From an uncultured Spirochaetota bacterium (GTDB lineage: Bacteria; Spirochaetota; B62-G9; DRHN01), in contig CAYWUT010000001.1 in NCBI GenBank assembly GCA_964460545.1, positions 21,320 to 85,319 on the forward strand: a DNA stretch of 64,000 nucleotides. Direction: 5' to 3'. Position 1 is the first letter of the stretch. Each line of letters starts with the position of its first letter. The notes under the pieces were generated by a model. That model made no database searches. It was given only the letters and a program-made list of their open reading frames with translations, and was not told the DNA's origin. Both the position numbers and the translations under genes were made by a program. This document shows, piece after piece, positions 11,144-59,569 of the stretch.

Positions 11144-12733
11144 TCAGAGGTAGACCTCTTCACTGCCTATGTTGAGCATCTTGACGATCTTGTTCTTGGC
11201 CTCGAGATAGCTGAGGAAAGCGATGATCTCATCCGGTGTCGTACACTTGAGAAGCCATTCGAAATGCTCCATACGGGCGAATATCTTTGACAGCGAATCG
11301 ACAATTCGATCATAGATCTCACCGAGATACTCGGGCGCGAGAAACGCGAACGCGATGTAAAACCGATCGCTGCCCGGACTCATTTCCACGCCGTCAGGCG
11401 AAAGCCCGATAATGGGCACAATATCATCCACGAAATCCCCGAATGCGTGAAACAGGGCGATGTTCCTTCCGATGGGGGTATGCACGATAATTCCGGTCTG
11501 CATGAGCTCCGCTTCCGCTTTTTCAGGGTTGAGCATCCGTCCCTTCCCCGTCTGTATGATCTCCCTGATGATTTCTTCCCGCTTTACGCCCCTGAGCCTC
11601 GGAATAACGAGATCTTTATGAAACATAAGTGACGCCGTGTAGGGAAGCGGATCGGGCGTGTCTCCTCCCGCATCCGTTTCCGTCTGTTCCAGCATGCGCC
11701 GTTGCGCCCTGTACTCGGGTATCTTGATCATGGGCGGGCGCTCGATACCCCATACTTTCATCTTTTCTATGGAATAGACGTCCCTCACGCCCGTCAAAAC
11801 CTGGAGGGAATCGGTGATGTCCTGAAATATCTCTATCCTCCCCATGTCGTCCGCCCTCTGGAGAAGTATCTTCAGAATCCGGTAGGACATGGACCGGAGT
11901 GATTCGATACTCTGGTTCTTGTGTATGCGAACGTCGAGATCGCACTGGCCCATGATATCGAGACTATAGAGCCGGTTGATATCGATGAGATGGCCCGTTT
12001 CAACTCCGTACCCGGTAAAGAAGGGCAGCTTCTCGAGCAGGTCCCTCCGCCCGGCGTATTCACCGGAGAGCGGCTGGGCGAAACCCGTAAGCTCGGGGAA
12101 GAGAAGATTGAAGAAAGGCCTGACCACCAGTTCCGTAACCCTTCCCCCGCCCGTGTAGTGAATCTCTCCGTGTATCTGAATCGGGCGTTTGTAAAAGGCC
12201 TTTACGTATGAGAGGTGCGGATAGAGAAGAAGCGGTCCGACAAGGCCATAGACGAAACGAGGATGTATATTCGTGATATCCGCGTCAATCCAGCATATAA
12301 TGTCTCCCTTGAGCACATAGAGGCTCTTCCAGAGGTTCTCACCCTTTCCCCTGTACACCCTGTGCTGAGGGAGGATATCCGATGAGTAGTAGAAATCCGC
12401 ACCCGCGCTCCTTGCGACCTCCTCGGTCCTGTCCGTTGATCCCGAATCGATGACCGCTATCTCGTCGAGGAGCGGGTGCTTCTCCGCGAGCTCGCGCCGC
12501 ATGAGCTCGATCTCTTTTCCGACGGTCTTTTCCTCGTTCAGCGTCGGAAAACAGAGGCTTATGCTCAATCCGAGCTCATTCTTTTTTTCAATGAGGCTTT
12601 CGACATCCTTGAACCGCGAGTGATGGAAGGTGTTCCGCTCTATCCATTCCTTTATGTACGAGGGCTTGTCGAGGTCACGGGTAAGGGCCTCCTGTACCTC
12701 GTTCGGACTCTCTTTCTTGTATAATTCCGCCAT
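11144..12733 (-). CDS. gpgS: glucosyl-3-phosphoglycerate synthase (GT81) fused to C-terminal PTS EIIA type-2 (PtsN-like) domain
   Basis: The N-terminal ~330 aa align with mycobacterial GpgS (PTLNEE.TVG ... IAVIDSGSTD.TE ... GKGE.LW.SL...GDI..(W/F)IDADI.N.HP.FV.GLVGPLL). The C-terminal ~150 aa have EIIA-2 hallmarks (PIGRNIALFHA ~ GxAIPH; FYIAFAFLAPE). Confidence 0.7.
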   Translation of the reverse strand: MAELYKKESPNEVQEALTRDLDKPSYIKEWIERNTFHHSRFKDVESLIEKKNELGLSISLCFPTLNEEKTVGKEIELMRRELAEKHPLLDEIAVIDSGSTDRTEEVARSAGADFYYSSDILPQHRVYRGKGENLWKSLYVLKGDIICWIDADITNIHPRFVYGLVGPLLLYPHLSYVKAFYKRPIQIHGEIHYTGGGRVTELVVRPFFNLLFPELTGFAQPLSGEYAGRRDLLEKLPFFTGYGVETGHLIDINRLYSLDIMGQCDLDVRIHKNQSIESLRSMSYRILKILLQRADDMGRIEIFQDITDSLQVLTGVRDVYSIEKMKVWGIERPPMIKIPEYRAQRRMLEQTETDAGGDTPDPLPYTASLMFHKDLVIPRLRGVKREEIIREIIQTGKGRMLNPEKAEAELMQTGIIVHTPIGRNIALFHAFGDFVDDIVPIIGLSPDGVEMSPGSDRFYIAFAFLAPEYLGEIYDRIVDSLSKIFARMEHFEWLLKCTTPDEIIAFLSYLEAKNKIVKMLNIGSEEVYL

Positions 12734-24940: not shown

Positions 24941-25063
24941 GGCGCCCGCTCCAACCGAGTATCCGCATTCACAAACACAGATCGCTTACCGTTGCTCCCT
25001 TCCGGTCCTGGCGGGGTTGGGCGTCGGTGTTTTGAACCGTACCCGGTTATCATCACGGGCACC
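24941..25063 (-). ncRNA. ffs: signal recognition particle RNA (4.5S/ffs, small bacterial type)
   Basis: The reverse strand contains the domain IV core CCAGGACCGGAAGGGAGCAACGGUAAG (compare E. coli GGUCCGGAAGGAAGCAGCCAAGG). Terminal helix GGUGCCCG / CGGGCGCC. Located immediately upstream of dnaX, the conserved position. Confidence 0.6.
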
Positions 25064-25089
25064 GAGGTACAGGCCTCAGGAACATGGTA

Positions 25090-25177
25090 CGGAGAGAGTG
25101 GGATTCGAACCCACGGTACCCGGTTAAGGTACACACGCTTTCCAAGCGTGCTCCTTCGGCCTCTCGGACATCTCTCC
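25090..25177 (-). tRNA. tRNA-Ser (anticodon GGA)
   Basis: Reverse strand reads GGAGAGATGTCCGAGAGGCCGAAGGAGCACGCTTGGAAAGCGTG...GGTTCGAATCCCACTCTCTCCG. Anticodon loop TTGGAAA, long variable arm, T-loop GGTTCGAATCC. CCA not encoded. Confidence 0.8.
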
Positions 25178-25280
25178 AGGTGAAATGATCACGGGAGAAA
25201 TCTTAAGTAACAGGGCGAGCTTTGAAACTCGACCCCGGCATTCGCTTTAATATATCATGGGGCAGGTGAAAAAACAACGG

Positions 25281-30025: not shown

Positions 30026-31024
30026 TCAGACACGATTATATTTTACATATCTCCCGGACTCGTACCTTCGTACAAAGATGGTATAGAAGAGGGCCGAGAT
30101 GGGAAACTGCGCGAGCACACAGGCGGCCACACCGAGTATGGCCCTGGTCTCGAACGTGGTTATAACGATGACCATGGCAATGGAGAGGTTTTTCGATCCG
30201 TTCTGGTAGATGAGGGGGACGGAGATCTCCCGGTCCAGCTTGAAGAGCGCGGTAATCATCCAGGCCATCATGAAACCCGCGGCGTAGTATATGGACGCGG
30301 ACAGGACGCCCCACCAGATGATTACCGGATACATCGTCAGTATCTCGGCTCTGAGCGCGATCGATATGAGAATGATGAAAAGCTCGATGATACCGGAGAT
30401 CGAGGAGAGCGTCGGCCTGATACGCCTCATGATGTCCTCCTTCAAATGCCTGCGCAGGAAATACTTCAAACCGCCCGCGAGGCCGAAGGGAATGACGATG
30501 AGGAGGAACAGGTTCCTGGCGAGTATGACGATTGAAAACGGAGCGGCCCTGAGCAGGAGGGCCTTGAGACCGAACGGAACGAGAATGAGGTAGTATATGA
30601 AGGTAAAGGACTGTATGATGAGCGTGAGCAGCACGTCCCCCTCGAGAAACGCGGTCCAGGCCGAGAGCATGGCGTTGGGAGGAACGGTCGAGGAGATGAT
30701 GAGTCCGTTTCTGAGGAACACGAATTGAACCGGAATGATCCTGGAAATCAGTATCCCGAGAACGGGGGAGAGAATGGTGAGTATGAAGCTCACGATTATG
30801 GGCATGGCATAGTTTCTGAGCTTGTAGAGCAGGGAGAGGTCCGTGGGGAAGACCATGAGAAACACCATGATAAAGAGGAGGGGGGTCAGAAGAAAACGGA
30901 GAGAGGACACCCGCTCCGGATTGAACCGTCCCACGAGGTACCCGACCACCATTGCAGCGAGCGCCCAGAGGAGTATGTATTTCCTGAAACTTATGTTGAA
31001 GTGCATGAAGGCGTCCGCCCGCAA
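30026..31024 (-). CDS. BASS/ACR3-like (bile acid:sodium symporter / arsenite efflux family) membrane transporter
   Basis: About 10 predicted TM helices over 332 aa and a family-like overall pattern. Family-level call only. Confidence 0.4.
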   Translation of the reverse strand: MRADAFMHFNISFRKYILLWALAAMVVGYLVGRFNPERVSSLRFLLTPLLFIMVFLMVFPTDLSLLYKLRNYAMPIIVSFILTILSPVLGILISRIIPVQFVFLRNGLIISSTVPPNAMLSAWTAFLEGDVLLTLIIQSFTFIYYLILVPFGLKALLLRAAPFSIVILARNLFLLIVIPFGLAGGLKYFLRRHLKEDIMRRIRPTLSSISGIIELFIILISIALRAEILTMYPVIIWWGVLSASIYYAAGFMMAWMITALFKLDREISVPLIYQNGSKNLSIAMVIVITTFETRAILGVAACVLAQFPISALFYTIFVRRYESGRYVKYNRV

Positions 31025-31064
31025 AGTTGCACTATTTTAACATAAACGGCGATCAAATAAAATA

Positions 31065-31874
31065 TTAATTAAGGGCGCGCAGTATGCGGACGCAGGTTTT
31101 AACGTTTTCCAGCCTGTCGCCGTTGGACAGGGAAACCCTGATCGTGTCGCCTATGCCCTCCGCAAGCAGGATTCCCGTTCCGAGCGCGGATCGTATGATG
31201 CCGTCCGTACCGAAACCGGCCTCCGTTATGCCGATGTGCAGGGGATAGTCGACGCGCGCGGCGATCAGCCTGTTCGCATCCACCGTGAGCCTTACATCCG
31301 TCGATTTGAGCGATAATACAATATCTTCGAACCCCTCCCCTTCAAGGAGCGCCACCTCGCGCAGGCAGCTTTCCACGAGCGCCTGCGGCGTCATGGAGTA
31401 TTTATCGAGGATTTCGCGGGCAAGTGACCCGGAATTGACCCCTATCCTTATGGGAACCCCCCGCGCCTTCGCCGCAGCAGCAACCTCTGAGACCTTCTTC
31501 TTGGATCCGATGTTGCCCGGGTTGATCCGTATCTTGTCCGCCCCGCTCTTTATCGCCTCCAGCGCGAGCCGGTGGTCGAAGTGAATATCCGCCACAATGG
31601 GAACACCCGACCGTTCCCTGATCACACCGATAAGCCGGGCGCTCTCCTGATCGGGAACCGCGACCCGGATGAGCGCACACCCCGCCTGCTCGAGGCGTTT
31701 TATCATCTTCACCGCGTTCTTTACGTCCCCCGCGCTCCGAACGGGCGTGGGCAGCATCTCCTGAATTACAACGGGGCTCCCGCTTCCGATGGAGACCGGA
31801 CCGACATAGACGGTGCGCGTAACACGCCGCCGGACCTGCGTTCTCCCCGGATCCTTCCGTTCCCCGCAGTTCAT
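31065..31874 (-). pseudogene. ispG: 4-hydroxy-3-methylbut-2-enyl-diphosphate synthase (IspG/GcpE) N-terminal TIM-barrel domain only; 4Fe-4S C-terminal domain absent
   Basis: Colinear with E. coli IspG residues ~1-270 (IQEM/SMT ... ADIHFDHRLALEA ... RINPGNIG ... IRIGVNSGSL ... HIGITEAG ... GIGDTIRVSL ... VRILRAL). Terminates with TAA where E. coli continues RIRSRGINFIACPTCSR. The next 40 bp are AT-rich intergenic before a transporter gene. Start taken at MNCGERK (31874); the track ORF extends to 32078. Confidence 0.6.
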
Positions 31875-31888
31875 TCGGCGCCCGGCGA

Positions 31889-33160
31889 TCACGTGAATAC
31901 CGCCTCCTGTATCTTTCTGAACTGGAGAAGAATGGAGTCGACGACCTCGACGCTGCTTTTCTTTATGACCTCGTCGCGGGCGATATCCTCCCTTACCCGG
32001 GCTCCCTCGCAGAGTCCCATGGGAAGGAGACCTTCCTGTTCGGCGGTCGCGCTTCTCTCTATACCGCCGTAAACGCATTCCCCGCCGAAACCGTCGATGA
32101 CGTCATCCTTTTTCAGGTCTTTCTTCGCACGCGTGATGACCTCGAGCCGCGGCTTACCGGGCGTCATTGAGGCCCTTCCGTGGAGGCACGCATTCGCGAC
32201 GGTAAGGGGAACCTCGAGGTTGGTGAGGTGATAGGGCCTGACGAGCGCGTAGTTCGGCCCTTCGCCCACCCGCAAATAGCGCAGGGTCCGGTCCGCGACG
32301 GGCCCCTTCGGCCTCACAACGGCGAAGACCCCGGGAGCCAGGTCCCCGATAATGTAATCGACGACGCCCTCCTTTTCCAGCACGCCCCCCTCGCCCGTAC
32401 TGAAGACCTTCGGCAGGTCCGCCACATCGGCGCTCGGTCCGTGCATGTTCCTGACGTCGATATCGAGCCCGGCGGAGTTCGCGGCACAGCACATCTCGAC
32501 CATGGTTTTCGTACCGTCCACAAACTCGGTAAGCATCTTCGGATTGAGCCCCGACGATTTCGCCCTTTTCTCGAGGGACCGCGGCGTGCCGTGATTATCC
32601 AGCGGATTGTTCTTTCCCTTGCCCGCGGCCACGACCGTGCACCCGCAGAGCCGGGCGAAATCGACGAGCTCGACGACCGCCGCGGGCTCGTCGCCCGCGC
32701 ACACCGTGTACACGGTCCCCATCCGTTTCGCCAGCATGCCCAGATAGGGTCCGACCGTGGCGTCCGTCTCCACATTGAGCATGCCGGTGTGCTTCCCCCG
32801 CACCATGCTCAAGAACGCCGTTTCCGCGCCGATCGCAGGTTTTCCGGTCGCCTCGATCACCATGTCGATCCCCTCCAGCCCGGGAATCAGCCTGAAATCA
32901 TCGGTGATAACGCGCTCCTCCGGGAACGCGATGTCCTTAACCGGTCCTTTCGAATCATCCGTGCGGACCGTGCACGGAATATTCTCGAAACACCGGGCGG
33001 CCCGCTCGATGTCGATATCCGCGAGCGCAACGACCTTCATCCCCGGCACGTTCTCCATGACTTCGACGATGCCCCGTCCCATGAAACCGCCGCCCACGAG
33101 GCCCACCTTGAAAAAGCGGCCCTGGCTCTGCATATCCTCCAGCTCCCTGTACATACCCAT
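31889..33160 (-). CDS. NAD(P)-binding oxidoreductase with C-terminal SAF domain (homoserine-dehydrogenase-like, COG4091-type)
   Basis: Rossmann motif VGLVGGGFMGRG near the N-terminus. Start taken at MGMYRE; the track ORF extends to 33238. Confidence 0.4.
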   Translation of the reverse strand: MGMYRELEDMQSQGRFFKVGLVGGGFMGRGIVEVMENVPGMKVVALADIDIERAARCFENIPCTVRTDDSKGPVKDIAFPEERVITDDFRLIPGLEGIDMVIEATGKPAIGAETAFLSMVRGKHTGMLNVETDATVGPYLGMLAKRMGTVYTVCAGDEPAAVVELVDFARLCGCTVVAAGKGKNNPLDNHGTPRSLEKRAKSSGLNPKMLTEFVDGTKTMVEMCCAANSAGLDIDVRNMHGPSADVADLPKVFSTGEGGVLEKEGVVDYIIGDLAPGVFAVVRPKGPVADRTLRYLRVGEGPNYALVRPYHLTNLEVPLTVANACLHGRASMTPGKPRLEVITRAKKDLKKDDVIDGFGGECVYGGIERSATAEQEGLLPMGLCEGARVREDIARDEVIKKSSVEVVDSILLQFRKIQEAVFT

Positions 33161-35055: not shown

Positions 35056-36760
35056 GAGAAAGTCTTTTCTGGGGCTCAGGTTCGGCGAGATCCTTCTGCG
35101 AATGGGAAGAATCGACGAAGAGGATCTGGAGTCACTGATCGCCGCACGGAAAAACGTGCGTACCCGGATCGGCGAATTCCTGCTCCAGCGGGGAGTCATA
35201 TCCGAAGACGACGTGCTCCGCACCCTCTCCGCGCAGCTCGGAATAGAGTACAGGGAGGACCTCCTCCTTCGGCACTCCGTCGTCATCGCGGAAAACCTGC
35301 CCAGACACTATATCAAGAAATACAACGTCCTCATCCTGAGCGATTCCGGAGATTTCGTGGAGGTCGCGATAAACGACCCCTTCCAGTTCGATGTGGTCGA
35401 GAATATCAGGGTGCTGACCGGCAAGGACGTGCAGCTCGTCCTCGGCAAGAAGCTCGATATAATGAAGCTCTCGGATATGCTCGCCGGCGAGGACGGTGAG
35501 AGCGCCGACCAGGTCATAGAGGACATGATGGGCGGGGAGGGGGGCATCGAGATACTGGGCGAGATAAACGAGACCGGAGAGGACATGCTCGACCTCGCCA
35601 ATGAAGCGCCCATAATCAAGCTCGTCAACCTCATGATAACCGAGGCCCTCAAATCCCGGGCCAGCGACGTTCACGTGGAGCCGAGCGAAGAGGGGATAGC
35701 GGTTCGGTACCGTATCGACGGTGTCCTCTACAACGTGCTCTCCCCACCGAAGAAATATCAGCAGGCCATCGTTTCGAGAATCAAGATCATGTCCAATCTC
35801 AACATAGCGGAGAACCGGCTTCCACAGGACGGCCGCATAAAGGTCAAGTACGGCACGTCAGACGTGGACATACGCGTTTCCATAGTCCCCTCTGTGGTGG
35901 GCGAGCGCGTCGTCATGCGGCTTCTCGTCAAGGACGAGCGGCGCTTCAACCTGGACAAGCTCGGCATGCGCGAGGACCTCGTGGAGTCGATGCGCTCCCT
36001 GCTCGGATCGCCGAGCGGCATCATCATCGTATCCGGTCCGACGGGAAGCGGAAAGACAACCACGCTCTACGCCGCGATCCGCGAGATCAACACGCCCGAG
36101 CGGAACATCATTACGATCGAGGACCCGGTGGAATACCGGATACAGGGCATCAGCCAGATACAGGTCAACAGCAAGATAAACCTGACCTTCGCGAACGGGC
36201 TCAGGTCCATACTGAGGCAGGACCCCGAGGTGATCATGGTGGGCGAGATACGCGACCGCGAAACCTCGGAAATAGCGATACAGGCCTCGATGACGGGGCA
36301 CCTCGTTTTCTCAACGGTGCACACGAACGACGCGGCCAGCGGAATCGTCCGCCTCATCGACATGGGCATCGAGCCCTATCTCATCGCCTCCACCGTTATC
36401 TGCTTCCTCTCGCAGCGGCTCGTCCGCGTGCTCTGCCCCCACTGCCGCGAGCCGGTCCGGATCGATCCCGAGGTGCTCCGCAGGGAGAATATCGATCCCG
36501 ACAGATTCGAGAAGGATGTGTTCAAACCCGTGGGGTGCACCAAGTGCCAGAACACCGGGTACCACGACCGGGTCGGCATATACGAGATAATCAGGTTGAA
36601 CGACGAGGTACGGCGCATGATCGTCGAAAAGCTCGACGCCGCCACCATCAGGGACCGCTGCATCGAGGCGGGCATGCGCACCATGATGGACGACGGCATC
36701 CAGAAGGTGCTGGACGGCGTCACATCGCTCGAGGAAGTAGTGCGGGTCATCAGGGAATAA
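35036..36760 (+). CDS. gspE: type II secretion / type IV pilus assembly ATPase GspE (MshE-like) with N-terminal MshEN repeats
   Basis: Walker A GPTGSGKTT, Asp box, His box, and tetracysteine CPHC...CTKC. N-terminal T2SE_Nter repeats (LRFGEILLRMGRIDEEDLESLIAARKN; RIGEFLLQRGVISEDDVLRTLSAQLG). Its start overlaps the gspD end by 20 bp. Confidence 0.88.
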   Translation: MKKTETERKSFLGLRFGEILLRMGRIDEEDLESLIAARKNVRTRIGEFLLQRGVISEDDVLRTLSAQLGIEYREDLLLRHSVVIAENLPRHYIKKYNVLILSDSGDFVEVAINDPFQFDVVENIRVLTGKDVQLVLGKKLDIMKLSDMLAGEDGESADQVIEDMMGGEGGIEILGEINETGEDMLDLANEAPIIKLVNLMITEALKSRASDVHVEPSEEGIAVRYRIDGVLYNVLSPPKKYQQAIVSRIKIMSNLNIAENRLPQDGRIKVKYGTSDVDIRVSIVPSVVGERVVMRLLVKDERRFNLDKLGMREDLVESMRSLLGSPSGIIIVSGPTGSGKTTTLYAAIREINTPERNIITIEDPVEYRIQGISQIQVNSKINLTFANGLRSILRQDPEVIMVGEIRDRETSEIAIQASMTGHLVFSTVHTNDAASGIVRLIDMGIEPYLIASTVICFLSQRLVRVLCPHCREPVRIDPEVLRRENIDPDRFEKDVFKPVGCTKCQNTGYHDRVGIYEIIRLNDEVRRMIVEKLDAATIRDRCIEAGMRTMMDDGIQKVLDGVTSLEEVVRVIRE

Positions 36761-36969
36761 AGACCTCATTCCGCTTCTATTCTTTTCTCCGGTATAATAA
36801 AGCAAAAGAGGATAAGGCACTTTTTCACGGGAAAACCATAATCGCCGCTCATTTGATTCGGTTGTTGGATCGACCCGGGACAATTCATCTACATTATTCA
36901 AATATATCCCTCATCAGCTATACATCCGGTAAGGCATCCTTGATGAAACCATTTCAAGGAGGCTACAAG

Positions 36970-37507
36970 ATGAGACCGGCACGATTTGCGTCAATCATGA
37001 TTCTTATGGTAACAGCATCGATTATGGCTGAAGGTTGTGCAACTAAAAAGGCAATTACTCATGATGATGCGTCCAACAGATTGATTGGAAAATGGGTAAA
37101 TACTGACAATCCCGATTCCGGAACTTATGTGGTCCTTACACAAGATGCGTCAGATACTGCGGATTTTTTCTCATCCTTAAAAATTGATATTAACATCAAA
37201 AAAAATATGGCAAGTCCATCATTCGGCTGATGATCCGCTTGCAGCCGGTTACGGAACATATACTATAAGAAAATGCTGGGTAGACTTAAAAGAAAATACA
37301 TTCTGTCAGGCTCTGCTGCAATTTGTAAGTGGGAGCAGATTTTATACGTTATTTCAGCTAGATTCATCTAATGCTATTCTTGAATGCAACTGGTATTATG
37401 GTGGGGAAGAAAGATATCCGGAAAAAATCATTGGGCATGATGTTATCATAGAAGATTTTAGATCGTCTGATGTATCACTTTATTATAATATCTACTACGG
37501 AAGGTAA
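36970..37507 (+). pseudogene. AT-rich lipoprotein gene, frameshifted at an A8 homopolymer (two ORF fragments 36970..37230 and 37184..37507)
   Basis: RBS AAGGAGG, then ATG 36970 and a lipoprotein-type signal MRPARFASIMILMVTASIMAEGC. The reading frame switches at CATCAAAAAAAATATGG (about 37196..37212); the downstream fragment continues in a different frame, which would give a single ~180-aa protein. Low GC relative to the flanks. Confidence 0.45.
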
Positions 37508-37563
37508 AAAGCCACGCCCGCTGAAGAGGAGCGTTCCGCCCCCGGGAAAATCCCTCTGACTTC

Positions 37564-37600
37564 TTGACTCAAATATGTTACACGTGTATTATACGTGTAA
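37564..37600 (+). promoter_or_regulatory. sigma70-like promoter TTGACT-17-TATTAT with inverted repeat TTACACGT...ACGTGTAA flanking the -10 (putative TA operator)
   Basis: -35 at 37564..37569 and -10 at 37587..37592 with exact 17-bp spacing. Inverted-repeat arms at 37578..37585 and 37593..37600. RBS AGGAGG at 37605..37610. Confidence 0.5.
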
Positions 37601-37619
37601 ATAGCAGGAGGTGTGCGTG

Positions 37620-37850
37620 ATGCAAAAAAAACTCACCGTTACCATAGACGAGGAAGTCTATAACGGTTTACGGACCGTCATCGGTCCGCGGAAAATCAGC
37701 CGGTTCATCGAAGAGTTGGTCCGCCCGCATGTTGTCAAGAAGAATATGTATGCTGCCTATAAAGAGATGGCTGCTGATAAGGTCAGGGAATCCGAAGCCC
37801 TTGAGTGGGCCGAAGGTACGGTTGGAGATGTAAGTGATGAAAAGAGGTGA
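37620..37850 (+). CDS. type II antitoxin (MazE/PemI-like partner of downstream PemK/MazF toxin)
   Basis: 76-aa ORF ([33 protein letters not shown]...) immediately upstream of, and overlapping, the toxin gene. An autoregulatory-type promoter/operator lies upstream. Confidence 0.6.
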
Positions 37851-38157
37851 AATATGGTGGGTCAATTTTGATACTTCCGTCGGTGGTGAAATCCGTAAAC
37901 AGCGACCTGCCGTCATTGTAAGTAATGATGCCGCCAACCAGTACCTTAACAGAGTCCAAGTCGTACCCCTGACGAGTAGCGTCGGCAAACTCTACCCAAG
38001 CGAATCATACGTAACATTTCGTGGAAAAAAGACCAAGGCTATGTCCGATCAGATTACAACGGTGAGTAAAAAGCGGCTCATCAATCAAGCAGGATCGTTG
38101 TCCACTACCGATATGGAGGGTATAGGCCAGGCTATAACTGTCCAACTGGATCTTTAA
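37834..38157 (+). CDS. mazF: PemK/MazF-family endoribonuclease toxin
   Basis: Canonical N-terminus [33 protein letters not shown]. 107 aa. Its start overlaps the antitoxin stop (GTGATGA). Confidence 0.8.
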
Positions 38158-38456
38158 GGCGGAACAAGCTGTGCGGAGTGGTTTGTCAACCGTAAAATAT
38201 GATGAAACACCATGAGCCGTTGTTAACCGGCGACGAATTTGTTATTAGGGTGAACTTAGATTTTTTCTTTTATACCACTGGGTAGTCATTAAACATGATA
38301 ATCATTTCTATTTTATTTCATTAATTATTGAAGTTCACCTGCAATAGCGTATCTTATATATGTGAAAGCTTCCCATTATATATATTTCTTAAAACTCGAA
38401 ATTCGCTCTATTAATATGTGAGAAGTCTAAAAGAAAATCGAAGGATATAGGGAATA

Positions 38457-39668
38457 ATGGCGGTCTTCGACTACAGGGCGATAACGGGGGGCGGCAAGCA
38501 GGTGAAGGGGATGCTGGATGCCTCGTCCCTGGAGAGCGCCCGGGAGCGGCTCAGGAGCCGCGGTCTCTTCATACAGTCCCTCACTGAGATGACCAAATCC
38601 GGGTCGGGGGGCCTGGGCCGATCCTTCTCGTTCAGGCGCAAGAGCACGGTCACGACCCAGATCACCCGCCAGCTCGGTTTCCTCCTGAGCGCCCACATCC
38701 CGGTCGTATCCGCGCTTGACGGCGTCATAGACCAGGCCGAGGATGAAAAGACGAAAAAGATGATGATAGACATAAAGGAAAAGATGAAAGAGGGGAAGAG
38801 CGTATCCCAGGCCTTCTCCGATTACCCGGACTATTTCAACAACATGTACGTGAACACGCTGAAGGCGGGCGAGGCGTCCGGCAGGCTCGAGTCCGTTTTC
38901 AAGCGGCTGTCCGAAATGTACGAGCGAAACCAGGCGCTCGTGTCGAAGCTCAGGTCCACCCTTACCTATCCGGCGGTGCTTCTCCTCTTCTCTGTCGTCG
39001 TCATCGTGTTTCTCGTCTCCTTTATCGTTCCCACGTTCGCGAAGCTCTTCGAGGATTTCGGACAGGCCCTCCCCCTTCCCACGAGGGTCCTCATAGGCCT
39101 GTCACAGGCGTTTTCCGCGGGATGGTGGATCATCCTCATCGTTCTGGTGTTTCTCTTCTTATTGGGAAGGAGGATCTACCGCGGAGAACGGGGGCGTGTC
39201 TACCTAGACGGGCTCGTCTTCAAAATACCGGTGGTAAAAAACCTCGTGCTCGATACGTTCAGGATACGCTTCTCCTTTACCATGAGCCTCATGCTCGGGA
39301 ACGGCGTGGGAATAATCGAATCCCTCCAGAATACCGGGCATGTATTCAGAAACAGGCTGTTCACGAACGCAATCGCAGACGCGATTACGAAAGTGAAAAA
39401 AGGTGCGAAACTATCAAAAGCGCTTTCATCGAACGAGGTCTTCAACGCGTCCCTGCTCGGAATGATCCATGCAGGCGAGATGAGCGACCGGGTCTCCGAA
39501 GTGCTTCAAACGATCGGCGACAACCTCGAAATCGATCTCGAGGAACGCATCGGGATACTGACCTCTCTCGTGGAACCCGTCATGCTGCTCGTGATAGGAA
39601 TCATCGTGGGCTTTGCGGTTCTTTCCATTATGCTGCCCATCTTTCAGATAAACCAGATATTCGGCTGA
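38457..39668 (+). CDS. gspF: type II secretion system inner-membrane platform protein GspF (PilC family)
   Basis: Two GspF-type repeats, TM segments, and a typical N-terminus MAVFDYRAITGGGKQVKGMLDASSLESARERLRSRGLFI. 403 aa. Confidence 0.85.
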   Translation: MAVFDYRAITGGGKQVKGMLDASSLESARERLRSRGLFIQSLTEMTKSGSGGLGRSFSFRRKSTVTTQITRQLGFLLSAHIPVVSALDGVIDQAEDEKTKKMMIDIKEKMKEGKSVSQAFSDYPDYFNNMYVNTLKAGEASGRLESVFKRLSEMYERNQALVSKLRSTLTYPAVLLLFSVVVIVFLVSFIVPTFAKLFEDFGQALPLPTRVLIGLSQAFSAGWWIILIVLVFLFLLGRRIYRGERGRVYLDGLVFKIPVVKNLVLDTFRIRFSFTMSLMLGNGVGIIESLQNTGHVFRNRLFTNAIADAITKVKKGAKLSKALSSNEVFNASLLGMIHAGEMSDRVSEVLQTIGDNLEIDLEERIGILTSLVEPVMLLVIGIIVGFAVLSIMLPIFQINQIFG

Positions 39669-51556: not shown

Positions 51557-54500
51557 TCAGCCGCCCTCAGGGCCGTCATCAAAGGCCATCCCCATGAGGT
51601 CGTAGAGCGGCCTCCGGTAAGAGGAGGCGATGCTTTCCACGCTGAGCGACAGCAGTTCCCCTCTCTTTGCCTTTACGCGAAGGTCATTCCCCTCGCCGGT
51701 TTTCCCTATCCTGACGAGGAGGTGCGACAAACCCGCGGTCCCGGCGCGCCGTTCGAGATCACTTTCTCTGTCCCCGTTCACCGAGACGAGGAACCTGCCC
51801 GCGGACTCCGAGAACAGGACCTCTTCGGGGCTCAGACCCGAACGTTCCTCCACGGAAGAGATATCCACGTCGGATCCGAGCATCCCGCCGATACATGATT
51901 CCATGAGGCCTACGGCCAGGCCCCCTTCGGAGAGGTCGTGACCGCTCGCGATGACCCCGTCTCTCACGAGTCCGAAGTAAAACCGGTACACCGCGCCGTT
52001 GCGTGTAAAATCCACCTCCGGAAGCCTGTGAGAGCTCCCGCCGTAAAGCCTGTAAAAGAGTGAGCAGCCGAGAGCGGGACCCGTCTCGCCCAGCAAATAG
52101 ATCCCGTCGCCCGGGAGCTTGAAATCGGAGGTAACGCAGGTCCGTATATCGGGTACGATACCGAGCGCGGACACGAGTACGGTCGGAAGAACGCTCACCT
52201 TGTGCTCACCGATCTTATAGTCGTTCTTCATACTGTCCTTCCCGGATATGAAGGGCGCACCGTACGCGGTCGCCGCGTCATGGAGAGCCTCCGCGGCGCG
52301 TACGAGCTGCGCGAGCTTATACCGGCCGTCCGGTGTCTTTTCTTCGTTGTAAACCGGGTCGGGCCAGCAGAAGTTGTCGAGAAGCGCCACCCGGTCAGGA
52401 TCCGCTCCCACGGAGACTGCATTCCGAAGGGCCTCGTCAACCGCATGAGCTCCCATTGTATAGGTGTCGACCGGGGAAAGAAAGGGATTTATCCCCGACG
52501 CGAGCACGAACCCGGTATGATCACCGGGAACCGGGGCGATCACGCCGCCGTCGGACGGAGCGGTCTTCCCCTTTTCCTTGCCGGTCCATCCCATCAGTGG
52601 CTTTATCACCGTATTCCCGCCTACCTCGTGGTCGTAGCGTCTGATCACGGGCTCCCTCGAGCATATGTTGAGGTCTCCTATCATCCGGAGGAACACTTCT
52701 CCCAGATCTCCCGCCCCTGAGGGCGGCTTTCTGCGAACGGGCGGTTCTTCCCACACGGCTTCGAGTGAGAGGGGAATGGATGCATGCAGAAATTCCAGCT
52801 CCAGCAGCCCCACCGTCCTGTTACCGTAACGTATGTGAAAATATCCCGAATCGGTAAAACGTCCGATGGAAACGGCGAGAACGTCACGTGATTCGGCGAG
52901 CTCGAGAAATCTATTCAATTTCTCCTCAGGAACCGCCAGAGTCATGCGCTCCTGCGCTTCGGAGAGGAGTATCTCCCATGGATCGAGACCGGCATATTTA
53001 AGCGGGGCCTTTTCGAGCTGAAGCACCGCGCCGCCCGCAAGCAGGGCCATCTCACCGACGGACGAGGAGAGACCTCCCGCACCGTTATCCGTTATTCCCC
53101 TGTAGAGAAAACGGTCACGGGCCTCGAGTATCATGTCGAGCAGGTTCTTCTGCGTTATGGGGTCCCCGATTTGCACCGCCTGCGACGGGGATTTTTCCGA
53201 GATCTCCTCGCTCGAAAAGGTCGCGCCGTGAATTCCGTCCTTCCCGATCCTGCCTCCGGCCATGACGATCACGTCACCGGGTTTCGCGTGCTTTTCATGT
53301 GCCGGCATGCCATCGATAAACCGCGGCATGATGCCGACGGACCCGCAGAATACGAGGGGCTTGCCCCTGTATGAGGGGTCGAAAAGAACAGCCCCGTTTA
53401 CCGTAGGTATGCCGCACTTGTTTCCCCCGTCCTCTATCCCCTTGACGACACCCTCCATGATCCGTTTCGGGTGCATCATCCGGGGAGGCAGTTCATCCAC
53501 GGAAACAAAAGGATCGCCGAAACAGAGCACGTCCGTATGGGCTATAATACGGGAGCCCATACCCGTTCCGGCCGGGTCCCGGTCGCATCCCACGATTCCG
53601 GTGATCGCCCCCCCGTAGGGATCGAGCGCTGAAGGCGAGTTGTGGGTCTCCACCTTGAATGCGAGGTTGTAATCGTCGTTGAATCGTACGACCCCCGCGT
53701 TGTCGCTGAAAACGGATACGAGAAAATACTTTTCCTTCGCGATCCGTTCGGTCGCCGAGCATATAAAGGTCTTGAAAAGGGAGTTGATGACCCGCTCCCT
53801 GCCGTTCTCCCGGTAACGGATCGATGCGTTGAATATCTTGTGCTTGCAGTGTTCCGACTGCGTCTGCGCGAAACACTCGAGCTCCACATCGGTCGGGTCC
53901 GGACCGATGCCCTCGTCTATCCTGGCCTGCCGCACGGCCTCCCTGTCGAAATAATTTCTGAAGTACTTCATCTCCTCGAGTGTAAGGGCGAGCACGCGAT
54001 CGGCGGATAGTTCCATGAGTGCATCATCGGGAACATGCAGGTCAAGCGTATCAACCACCGGTGCATGATCGAAAAAACTGTTCTTTGACCGCGGGCCGAC
54101 CCCCCCCTGCTCCTCGAATTCGTTCCGATCGAGTATAACGATCTCCTCGATAAGGCCGTTGTAGAGTATCTCCCTCCCGATGCGCTCCACCGATTTCCGT
54201 TCAAGCTCCGCATCGATGAGATACTGTACGGACTTGTAAACGGCCGGGAGGGAGCCGTCTCCGGCGTCGGACGGCCCGGGCCGCTGTTCACCGTTTTTCA
54301 TCATCATCTTCAGGACATCGGTCGCCGTATGTCCCACATTATCCGTGACACCCGGTTTGTAACCAACCTCGACCGCCCACCTGAAAAACGGGAGCTTCAG
54401 TGCCGCAGGCGCGTCCACCGTATAGATGCAGAGCACGGGGTCGCACAAAACATCCCGGGCGAATTCCGAAAGCCGTTCCTTTGAAAGGCGGGAATAAACC

Positions 54501-59485: not shown

Positions 59486-59569
59486 TGCCGGAGGAGGGAC
59501 TCGAACCCTCATGGAGTTGCCCCCGCTGGATTTTGAGTCCAGTGCGTCTACCAGTTCCACCACTCCGGC
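59486..59569 (-). tRNA. tRNA-Leu (anticodon CAA)
   Basis: Reverse strand reads GCCGGAGTGGTGGAACTGGTAGACGCACTGGACTCAAAATCCAGCGGGGGCAACTCCATGAGGGTTCGAGTCCCTCCTCCGGCA. Anticodon loop CTCAAAA, long variable arm, T-loop GGTTCGAGTCC. Confidence 0.8.

Follow-up and report, generated by a model that had tools for sequence, protein, structure and literature searches.

A TIM-barrel-only ispG beside a DXR-II homolog points to a probable two-gene IspG in uncultured Spirochaetota

IspG (GcpE), the (E)-4-hydroxy-3-methylbut-2-enyl diphosphate (HMBPP) synthase, is an essential Fe-S enzyme of the methylerythritol phosphate (MEP) pathway and a drug target. The window analysed here, a 64,000-nucleotide stretch of contig CAYWUT010000001.1 from an uncultured Spirochaetota bacterium, carries an ispG gene that encodes the TIM barrel and stops ahead of the Fe-S domain. 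Is this short ispG the remnant of a broken gene, a barrel with a new role, or one half of an enzyme whose other half is encoded elsewhere? We consider it likely that the gene is intact and encodes the catalytic-barrel subunit, A, of a two-gene IspG. Such a two-gene IspG would belong to a clade of uncultured bacteria labelled Spirochaetes or Spirochaetota by NCBI, in which the second gene encodes A*B, a paralog with a degenerate barrel (A*) and the Fe-S domain (B).

The short ispG lies on the minus strand at 31065..31892 and ends with a TAA codon at 31067-31065. Two starts are candidates, an ATG at 31874 giving 269 aa and a GTG at 31892 giving 275 aa. The GTG is the start called for protein P0001 in an independent assembly, and it shares nucleotides with the TGA that ends the preceding gene (GTGA). 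An AGGAGG hexamer resembling a Shine-Dalgarno sequence was read at 31903..31908 on the minus strand, 10 nt upstream of the GTG. The overlap suggests translational coupling between the two genes. Neither internal stops nor frameshifts occur in the open reading frame (ORF). An earlier sequence-only reading had placed the gene at 31024-31874; its start agrees with the ATG and the stop lies at 31065, so that 31024-31064 is intergenic or belongs to the ORF of the neighbouring transporter.

The domain content of the product is that of a barrel only. Pfam GcpE (PF04551) matched with E 2.4e-94 over positions 1-247 of its 343-position profile, whereas Pfam found no GcpE_C domain in the product. The NCBIfam IspG equivalogs covered just positions 8-264 of 364 and scored under their cut-offs, with 310 against 345 for NF001540 and 275.7 against 280.25 for TIGR00612. 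The three-domain models gave partial matches with scores of 172 for PRK02048 (cut-off 886) and 161 for PRK00694 (cut-off 1045), and the length of 269-275 aa is far from the single chain of ~600-750 aa of a three-domain IspG. Compared with a canonical two-domain IspG, the barrel residues are present, and the same-chain 4Fe-4S domain and a score above the equivalog cut-offs are missing. A tblastn search with three full-length IspGs and one Fe-S-domain protein detected no Fe-S domain in any frame of the window. What the sequence-only reading had noticed, an ispG gene without its Fe-S domain, is thereby confirmed. A weak Fe-S-domain match at 53417-53677 (E 0.13) was dismissed, as it falls within a 1031-aa ORF.

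The catalytic residues of the barrel are in place. The window protein was aligned with the structures 4mwa, 3noy, 2y0f and 4s38, and the substrate-site residues listed next carry the numbers of Thermus thermophilus IspG. In the HMMER alignment to 2y0f/4s38, the equivalents of R56, D87, H89, R110, N112, R141, N145, K204, T231, E232, R260 and S262 are all kept, and nearly all of them are invariant across the A-only alignments. We take these positions to be the MEcPP (methylerythritol cyclodiphosphate)-binding and catalytic residues. E232 is catalytic in T. thermophilus IspG (PMC11192765), and its equivalent in window-type proteins, E218, would serve the reductive ring opening. The AlphaFold2 model of the A-only protein is confident (predicted local distance difference test, pLDDT, 92.8; predicted template modelling score 0.89) and shows a complete (beta/alpha)8 barrel with residues 254-267 as the last helix. 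Judged by these residues, the A-only barrel appears catalytically complete. The top sequence match in the PDB is the 276-residue chain of Bacillus anthracis GcpE, 4MWA (E 2.5e-72, residues 8-258), which suggests that an IspG barrel of A-only length is stable alone; with 276 residues against ~350-370 in the two-domain IspGs compared here, 4MWA itself was probably cut from an ordinary two-domain enzyme in the laboratory and is not a natural stand-alone gene product.

A protein search recovered short PF04551-only homologs of 257-275 aa with 54-58% identity beside two-domain IspGs. The family was then delimited with a profile built from 13 A-only proteins. The top 64 clusters in this search were all PF04551-only (248-331 aa, 379-475 bits), and two-domain IspGs appeared from 374 bits; the window protein, via P0001, scored 411 bits within the A-only block. 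The family thus numbers at least 64 clusters with ~50-60% mutual identity, a common architecture and a common end point. In a joint alignment and tree of 68 truncated and 166 two-domain IspGs, 66 of the 68 A-only proteins end at one alignment column, 7 columns before the canonical CPxCG; the window protein and P0001 are shorter by another 4 columns. The stop therefore falls ahead of the Cys-ligand region, where the sequence-only reading had put it. The neighbour-joining tree placed all 68 A-only proteins, the window protein among them, in one clade that excludes the 166 canonical IspGs (18 of 20 bootstraps).

Five positions separate the A-only proteins from canonical IspGs: E39 replaces Ser, N201 Tyr, R254 Pro, N257 Glu and C261 Gly/Ala. 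All five signature residues are present in the window protein. We therefore define the A-only family as PF04551-only proteins of ~250-295 aa that end at the A/B domain boundary and carry this signature. C261 (codon at ~31092-31094), in the last helix, is Cys in 99% of A-only proteins and could be an interface or redox residue. When GTDB genomes were scanned with the window protein, its octapeptide VADIHFDH was also met in canonical IspGs, and no Spirochaetota or A-only locus was among the matches listed.

The gene is under purifying selection. The ratio of nonsynonymous to synonymous rates (omega) between L001 and L008, both loci of the window type, was 0.175 for A, comparable with the 0.19 of the upstream gene (DRL, below) and the 0.10 of the downstream transporter gene. 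Between the window and contig L146, it was 0.286 for A (88% amino-acid identity over 253 aligned codons) and 0.078 for the C-terminal part of DRL. With omega values of 0.18-0.29, a monophyletic family and a shared end point, the truncated gene is genuine and of long standing rather than an artefact or a pseudogene. The option of a disrupted gene, raised by the sequence-only reading, is contradicted by the monophyly, the purifying selection and the retained catalytic barrel residues.

The Fe-S domain was met in the relatives. Next after the short gene of locus L005, and convergent with it, comes the gene for a 354-aa protein with GcpE_C as its sole Pfam match. A search with this protein returned ~58 clusters of A*B-type proteins of 320-430 aa, which are colinear with whole IspG. 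Their C-terminal third keeps the CPxCGRC...MGCNVNGPGE motifs, with C238, C241, C286 and E293 invariant. The remaining two thirds, at the N-terminus, show homology to the A barrel (97% probability in hhalign, E 8e-11, 19% identity), with every listed substrate-site residue replaced, R56 by Trp among them, and with the DxH, RINPGN, RIGxN and TE motifs lost. The AlphaFold2 model of A*B (pLDDT 89.5) shows eight beta/alpha units followed by the Fe-S domain, and the best PDB matches of this model in Foldseek were the full-length IspGs 3noy, 2y0f and 4g9p (TM 0.6-0.7). By its residues, A*B reads as a paralog of IspG in which the TIM barrel is dead and the 4Fe-4S domain (three Cys and a Glu) intact. 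A split gene with the C-domain elsewhere had been another suggestion of the sequence-only reading; of its three options, the last being a barrel co-opted for another role, this comes closest, although the partner in the relatives is a full-length paralog with a dead barrel and not a free C-domain.

The A*B family is small and well separated, since among 1.84 billion representative proteins its profile found ~31 representatives at 240 bits or more and canonical IspGs reached at most 171 bits. Its proteins carry an insertion of roughly a dozen residues before the third Cys and an Asn after it (MGCNVNGP), the latter in 57 of 58 A*B proteins and in none of 174 canonical IspGs in the compared sets. 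Joint Genome Institute (JGI) metagenomes were scanned with a DNA pattern for this signature, VMGCNVNGPGEA, which gave 39 loci. Three of them (L114, L123 and L126) are ordinary IspGs carrying MGCNVNGPGE, so the Asn signature is not fully exclusive to A*B. L114 and L126 are full-length, and in both the QSM motif of a live barrel was read; L123 is cut at the contig end. The substitutions on the two sides, the five-residue signature in A and the Asn and pre-Cys insertion in A*B, may be co-adapted contacts, which is speculation at this point. In L014 (5445-5750), as also in L015 and L017, a 101-aa ORF just upstream of A*B matches only positions 236-296 of the GcpE profile, that is, the barrel/Fe-S junction, and looks like the leftover fragment of another ispG copy.

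In many lineages the genes for A and A*B are linked, either side by side or within a few kb of each other, and in others they are not; the loci fall into four types. In type 1 (L005-7, L019-24, L120, L124 and L133; GC 31-35%) the order is gspD / ROK / DRL - HAD, then A and A*B convergent in either order, then SBF. In type 2 (L011, L014-16, L108, L111, L115, L117 and L131; GC mostly 41-51%) the arrangement is A - AP_endonuc_2 - ABC transporter - A*B; L011 and L014-16 have the two genes on either side of the ABC-transporter operon, in L108, L111, L115, L117 and L131 they are neighbours, and several of these loci, L111 and L115 among them, lie between serS and PGM. Type 3 (serS - SAM_HAT ... A*B ... 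PGM - gcvH; GC 37-63%) has A*B with no A nearby and comprises L009, which is the Spirochaetota metagenome-assembled genome (MAG) GCA_048622675.1, L105, L112, L116, L132, L135, L142, L144 and others. Because A*B stands alone at the serS...PGM locus, the A gene of type-3 relatives should lie elsewhere.

Type 4 is that of the window, DRL - A - SBF with no A*B present (GC 39-58%). Here type II secretion genes are followed, divergently, by DRL, the short GcpE gene, SBF and valS. This order was seen in four JGI metagenome contigs (L001-4), in L008 (NCBI Spirochaetes MAG GCA_016934265.1), in L018 and in L145 (39%-GC MAG GCA_964424795.1), so that a short GcpE followed by an SBF transporter recurs in relatives, a comparison that the sequence-only reading had called for. 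Types 3 and 4 are mirror images, each with one partner and without the other, and they overlap in GC content. The closeness of L145 to a linked pair is seen in P0268, which shares 76% identity with the A protein of L145. Both P0268 and the A*B protein P0135 are found on 3 contigs, the longest of 95,320 bp, and very probably they share one contig; if so, A and A*B have been separated repeatedly and recently. The low-GC DRL - A - A*B - SBF clusters (L005 4861-7904, L019 2391-5929 and L133 501-3656) add a ROK-family sugar kinase and a HAD phosphatase, which are not in the window-type locus and might form part of a side branch, for salvage or from phosphosugars, that feeds the MEP pathway.

The gene upstream of the short ispG ties the locus to the same pathway. 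It is the first gene of the operon (31889..33160, minus strand, 423 aa from an ATG at 33160), matches PF21135 with E 8e-59 and aligns over its full length with the DXR-II (DRL) enzyme of Brucella abortus (3UPL/3UPY, E 1.8e-84), with which it has NAD-binding, catalytic and SAF-like C-terminal parts in common. In the alignment to 3upy it keeps G121, Y161, E174, F178, K191, K193, T229, H250, R320 and Y322. G121, Y161, K191, K193, T229, H250 and R320 are characteristic of or important in DXR-II, and the kept set includes fosmidomycin/substrate anchors and positions that vary in the inactive DLO1 and/or DLO2 (PMC3847144). DLO1 and DLO2 are the sister clades of DXR-II and do not have DXR activity (PMC3847144). 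The anchors K191, K193 and T229 are shared with the B. abortus enzyme. With the DRL catalytic domain and all seven diagnostic residues found in the upstream gene, we assign it, on the basis of these residues, as a DXR-II/DRL homolog. The neighbour had been described as an NAD-binding plus SAF-domain protein and not a normal ispG partner; the match to 3UPL/3UPY and PF21135 overturns this, and because the upstream gene is a DRL/DXR-II homolog with the diagnostic residues, the operon appears MEP-related and would join two MEP steps. DRL directly upstream is conserved in L001-4, L008, L145 and the type-1 loci.

The third gene of the conserved DRL - A - SBF trio is a transporter gene at 30026..31006 on the minus strand (326 aa from an ATG at 31006, or 332 aa from a TTG at 31024). 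It matches Pfam SBF (E 2e-10) and, weakly, NCBIfam acr3, which bears out the BASS/ACR3-like transporter that the sequence-only reading had named next to ispG. An SBF gene adjoins A or A*B in L001-L005, L008, L011, L018, L019-L024, L120, L124, L133 and L145; the adjacency spans locus types 1, 2 (L011) and 4 and persists through rearrangements at 31-58% GC. Plant BASS2, of the same superfamily as SBF, brings pyruvate into the plastid MEP pathway (PMC5316546). By analogy it is conceivable that the window transporter, with its weak Pfam and NCBIfam matches, supplies an MEP precursor.

How the two proteins might work together follows from the canonical enzyme. A two-domain IspG must dimerise, as the distance between the cluster and the substrate site within one chain is ~4 nm, and each active site pairs one chain's barrel with the partner chain's cluster domain (PMC11192765). 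A split IspG is plausible because the canonical barrel and cluster already work in trans between chains. We propose that an ancestral two-domain ispG was duplicated and that the copies degenerated in complementary ways. One copy would have lost the Fe-S domain and kept a competent MEcPP-binding barrel, as in the window; the other (A*B, ~320-420 aa) would have kept the Fe-S domain with a barrel stripped of its substrate residues, A* presumably being just a dimerisation scaffold now. In an A:A*B heterodimer the dimer interface would be maintained between the two barrels and a single composite active site would be left, with MEcPP bound by A and the partner's B domain closing onto A. The DXR-II (DRL) - A - SBF operon would then co-express two steps of the MEP pathway. 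From sequence complementarity and gene linkage we infer both the heterodimer and its enzyme activity. The A*B gene of the window's genome should lie elsewhere, most likely between serS/SAM_HAT and PGM/gcvH as in the mid- to high-GC relatives; this we infer from the loci described above.

Several observations weigh against the two-gene reading. Compared with the linked loci, HAD and A*B are simply missing from window-type loci, and tblastn found no A*B or GcpE_C sequence within the 64-kb window. No window-type locus could be linked to A*B in the same genome by cluster look-ups or on the contigs of P0174, P0169, P0137 and P0305. The omega of A in the window lineage (0.29) exceeds that of the neighbouring DRL (0.08). 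The conserved 4-residue C-terminal tail of the family is missing from the window protein and from L018, its relative at 99% identity, and these genomes may also carry a canonical ispG.

The foremost alternative draws on the first of these points. A*B may have been lost in window-type genomes, with A working without any IspG Fe-S domain. The barrel might then be a binder, sensor or sink of MEcPP, have a related phosphosugar as its substrate alongside DRL and the transporter, or rely on a redox partner of unrelated descent. The window-type locus does resemble a linked locus minus HAD and A*B, no A*B turned up in the 30 kb to each side of the gene in the window or in the retrieved stretches of L001, L008 and L145, and the DRL - A - SBF trio is conserved under purifying selection. 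Window-type proteins nevertheless retain the signature E39, N201, R254, N257 and C261 of the A-only family, together with catalytic residues of the reductive ring opening, E218 among them. At serS...PGM, A*B stands by itself in many relatives of mid to high GC content, the mirror image of the window type, and the 76% identity of the L145 protein to one that very probably shares its contig with A*B makes the separation look recent and recurrent. We hold this alternative to be unlikely. Less probable still is its stricter form, in which A*B is truly absent from window-type genomes and the barrel has acquired a Fe-S-domain-independent function with DXR-II and SBF. We know of no function of the IspG barrel outside IspG so far, and such a function would be a new role for it.

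A normal two-domain IspG might also be present beside A, so that A-only, with or without A*B, is an accessory paralog with a regulatory or stress-specific task, for example as a modulator of MEcPP levels. In its favour, MEcPP has been discussed as a stress signal (PMC11192765). The complementary losses in A and A*B are, however, the pattern to be expected of an obligate pair that replaced the ancestral enzyme and not of an add-on, and the gene shares its operon with DXR-II, which stands for a core step of the pathway. The contigs fetched for the family, small parts of the genomes, showed no canonical IspG. We regard an accessory role as very improbable.

Equally remote, in our judgement, is a decaying 5' remnant of ispG in which the transporter gene has taken the place of the 3' end. 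The absent Fe-S domain and the scores under both NCBIfam equivalog cut-offs would fit decay, as would the higher omega of A than of DRL and the position of the stop 4 codons before the usual end of the family. After the TAA, the codons TAT TTT ATT TGA follow in frame (31053..31064, minus strand), and the tblastn alignment of the L001 ortholog passes through the TAA to 31056. The usual C-terminal tail of the family is I-x-[Y/W/H]-[I/V]-stop with a nearly invariant Ile, so these codons look like a relic of it, and the window lineage and L018 appear to stop 4 codons early. This early stop may be harmless or may be the first sign of relaxation. Against a pseudogene stand the size and common end point of the family, the ORF free of stops and frameshifts with invariant catalytic residues, omega values well under 1 (0.175 and 0.286), the confident complete barrel of the AlphaFold2 model, and an A - SBF junction that recurs in lineages from 39% to 58% GC.

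An assembly or sequencing artefact that masks an uninterrupted two-domain ORF, through a frameshift or a chimeric join, has a negligible chance: the related contig L146 (P0002) does pass into unrelated antisense sequence 17 codons ahead of the stop, but the stop and the downstream transporter recur in independent assemblies of other samples (L018, a Logan assembly with the identical stop and 99% amino-acid identity, L001-4, L008 and L145), and no downstream frame encodes a Fe-S domain. L146 itself is 90.6% identical to the window over 1314 nt and switches abruptly at window position 31116; its 1315-1912 part is an antisense glycosyltransferase-like ORF fragment that produces the misleading 331-aa protein P0002. 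The contig is probably an assembly chimera, and the longer C-terminus of P0002 (85% identical) was discarded as evidence on the 3' end.

Elsewhere in the window, an insert of ~1.7 kb (36761-38456) lies between gspE, which ends at 36760, and gspF (38457-39665), genes that are adjacent in L001 and L008. It holds a PemK/MazF-type toxin ORF (37834-38157, Pfam E 5.5e-26) and an ORF at 37184-37507 with no Pfam match and a GC content at third codon positions of 0.29, compared with ~0.75 in neighbouring genes. A toxin-antitoxin unit has probably inserted here and divided the secretion operon. A bacterial small signal recognition particle RNA (24950-25048, minus strand) adjoins tRNA-Ser(GGA) (25089-25178), and tRNA-Leu(CAA) lies at 59486-59569. 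A 529-aa ORF (11144-12733) combines family-2 glycosyltransferase and phosphotransferase system EIIA-2 domains, an unusual fusion.

The two-gene reading, if true, has several consequences. A natural split into two proteins would be an evolutionary experiment that confirms the trans mechanism, and the role of the A* barrel would be open to study, as the subunits can be separately expressed, mutated and mixed. Both halves receive the name 'HMBPP synthase' in automated annotation, and the barrel half can resemble a pseudogene, so the MEP pathway in these Spirochaetota MAGs could be wrongly scored as intact or as broken. A search of the literature on domain architecture, heterodimers, spirochaetes and split genes met the two-domain and three-domain classes and found no split IspG, within an incomplete coverage that leaves an earlier description possible, and a two-protein IspG is apparently undescribed.

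Among known systems, the canonical A-B IspG (3NOY; T. thermophilus 2Y0F/4G9P/4S38) is the nearest to the window protein, which is 50-59% identical to canonical A domains and aligns end to end with the barrel of Aquifex aeolicus 3NOY (E 1.5e-65). The difference is the Fe-S domain, which the canonical enzyme has on the same chain and the window polypeptide does not. The three-domain A-A*-B IspG of plants, Apicomplexa, Chlamydiae, Bacteroidota, Chlorobi and Verrucomicrobia has, to our knowledge, still to be structurally characterised in plants and Apicomplexa. Its extra domain is structural and TIM-like (PMC11192765, PMC10663253). Its parts list is the same as that of A plus A*B, and it presumably has one active site per A/A*/B unit, as proposed here for A:A*B. 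The parts stand on one chain there and on two polypeptides here. Both A and A*B are closer to the two-domain type, as NCBIfam PRK00366 outscores PRK00694 and PRK02048, and the A* region aligns to the A domain (residues ~38-304) of 734-747-aa IspGs and not to their insert. Because of these two results, an independent, convergent origin of the two-gene IspG seems likelier than direct ancestry from the three-domain enzyme, and the pair would be the two-polypeptide counterpart of the three-domain IspG of plants and Apicomplexa.

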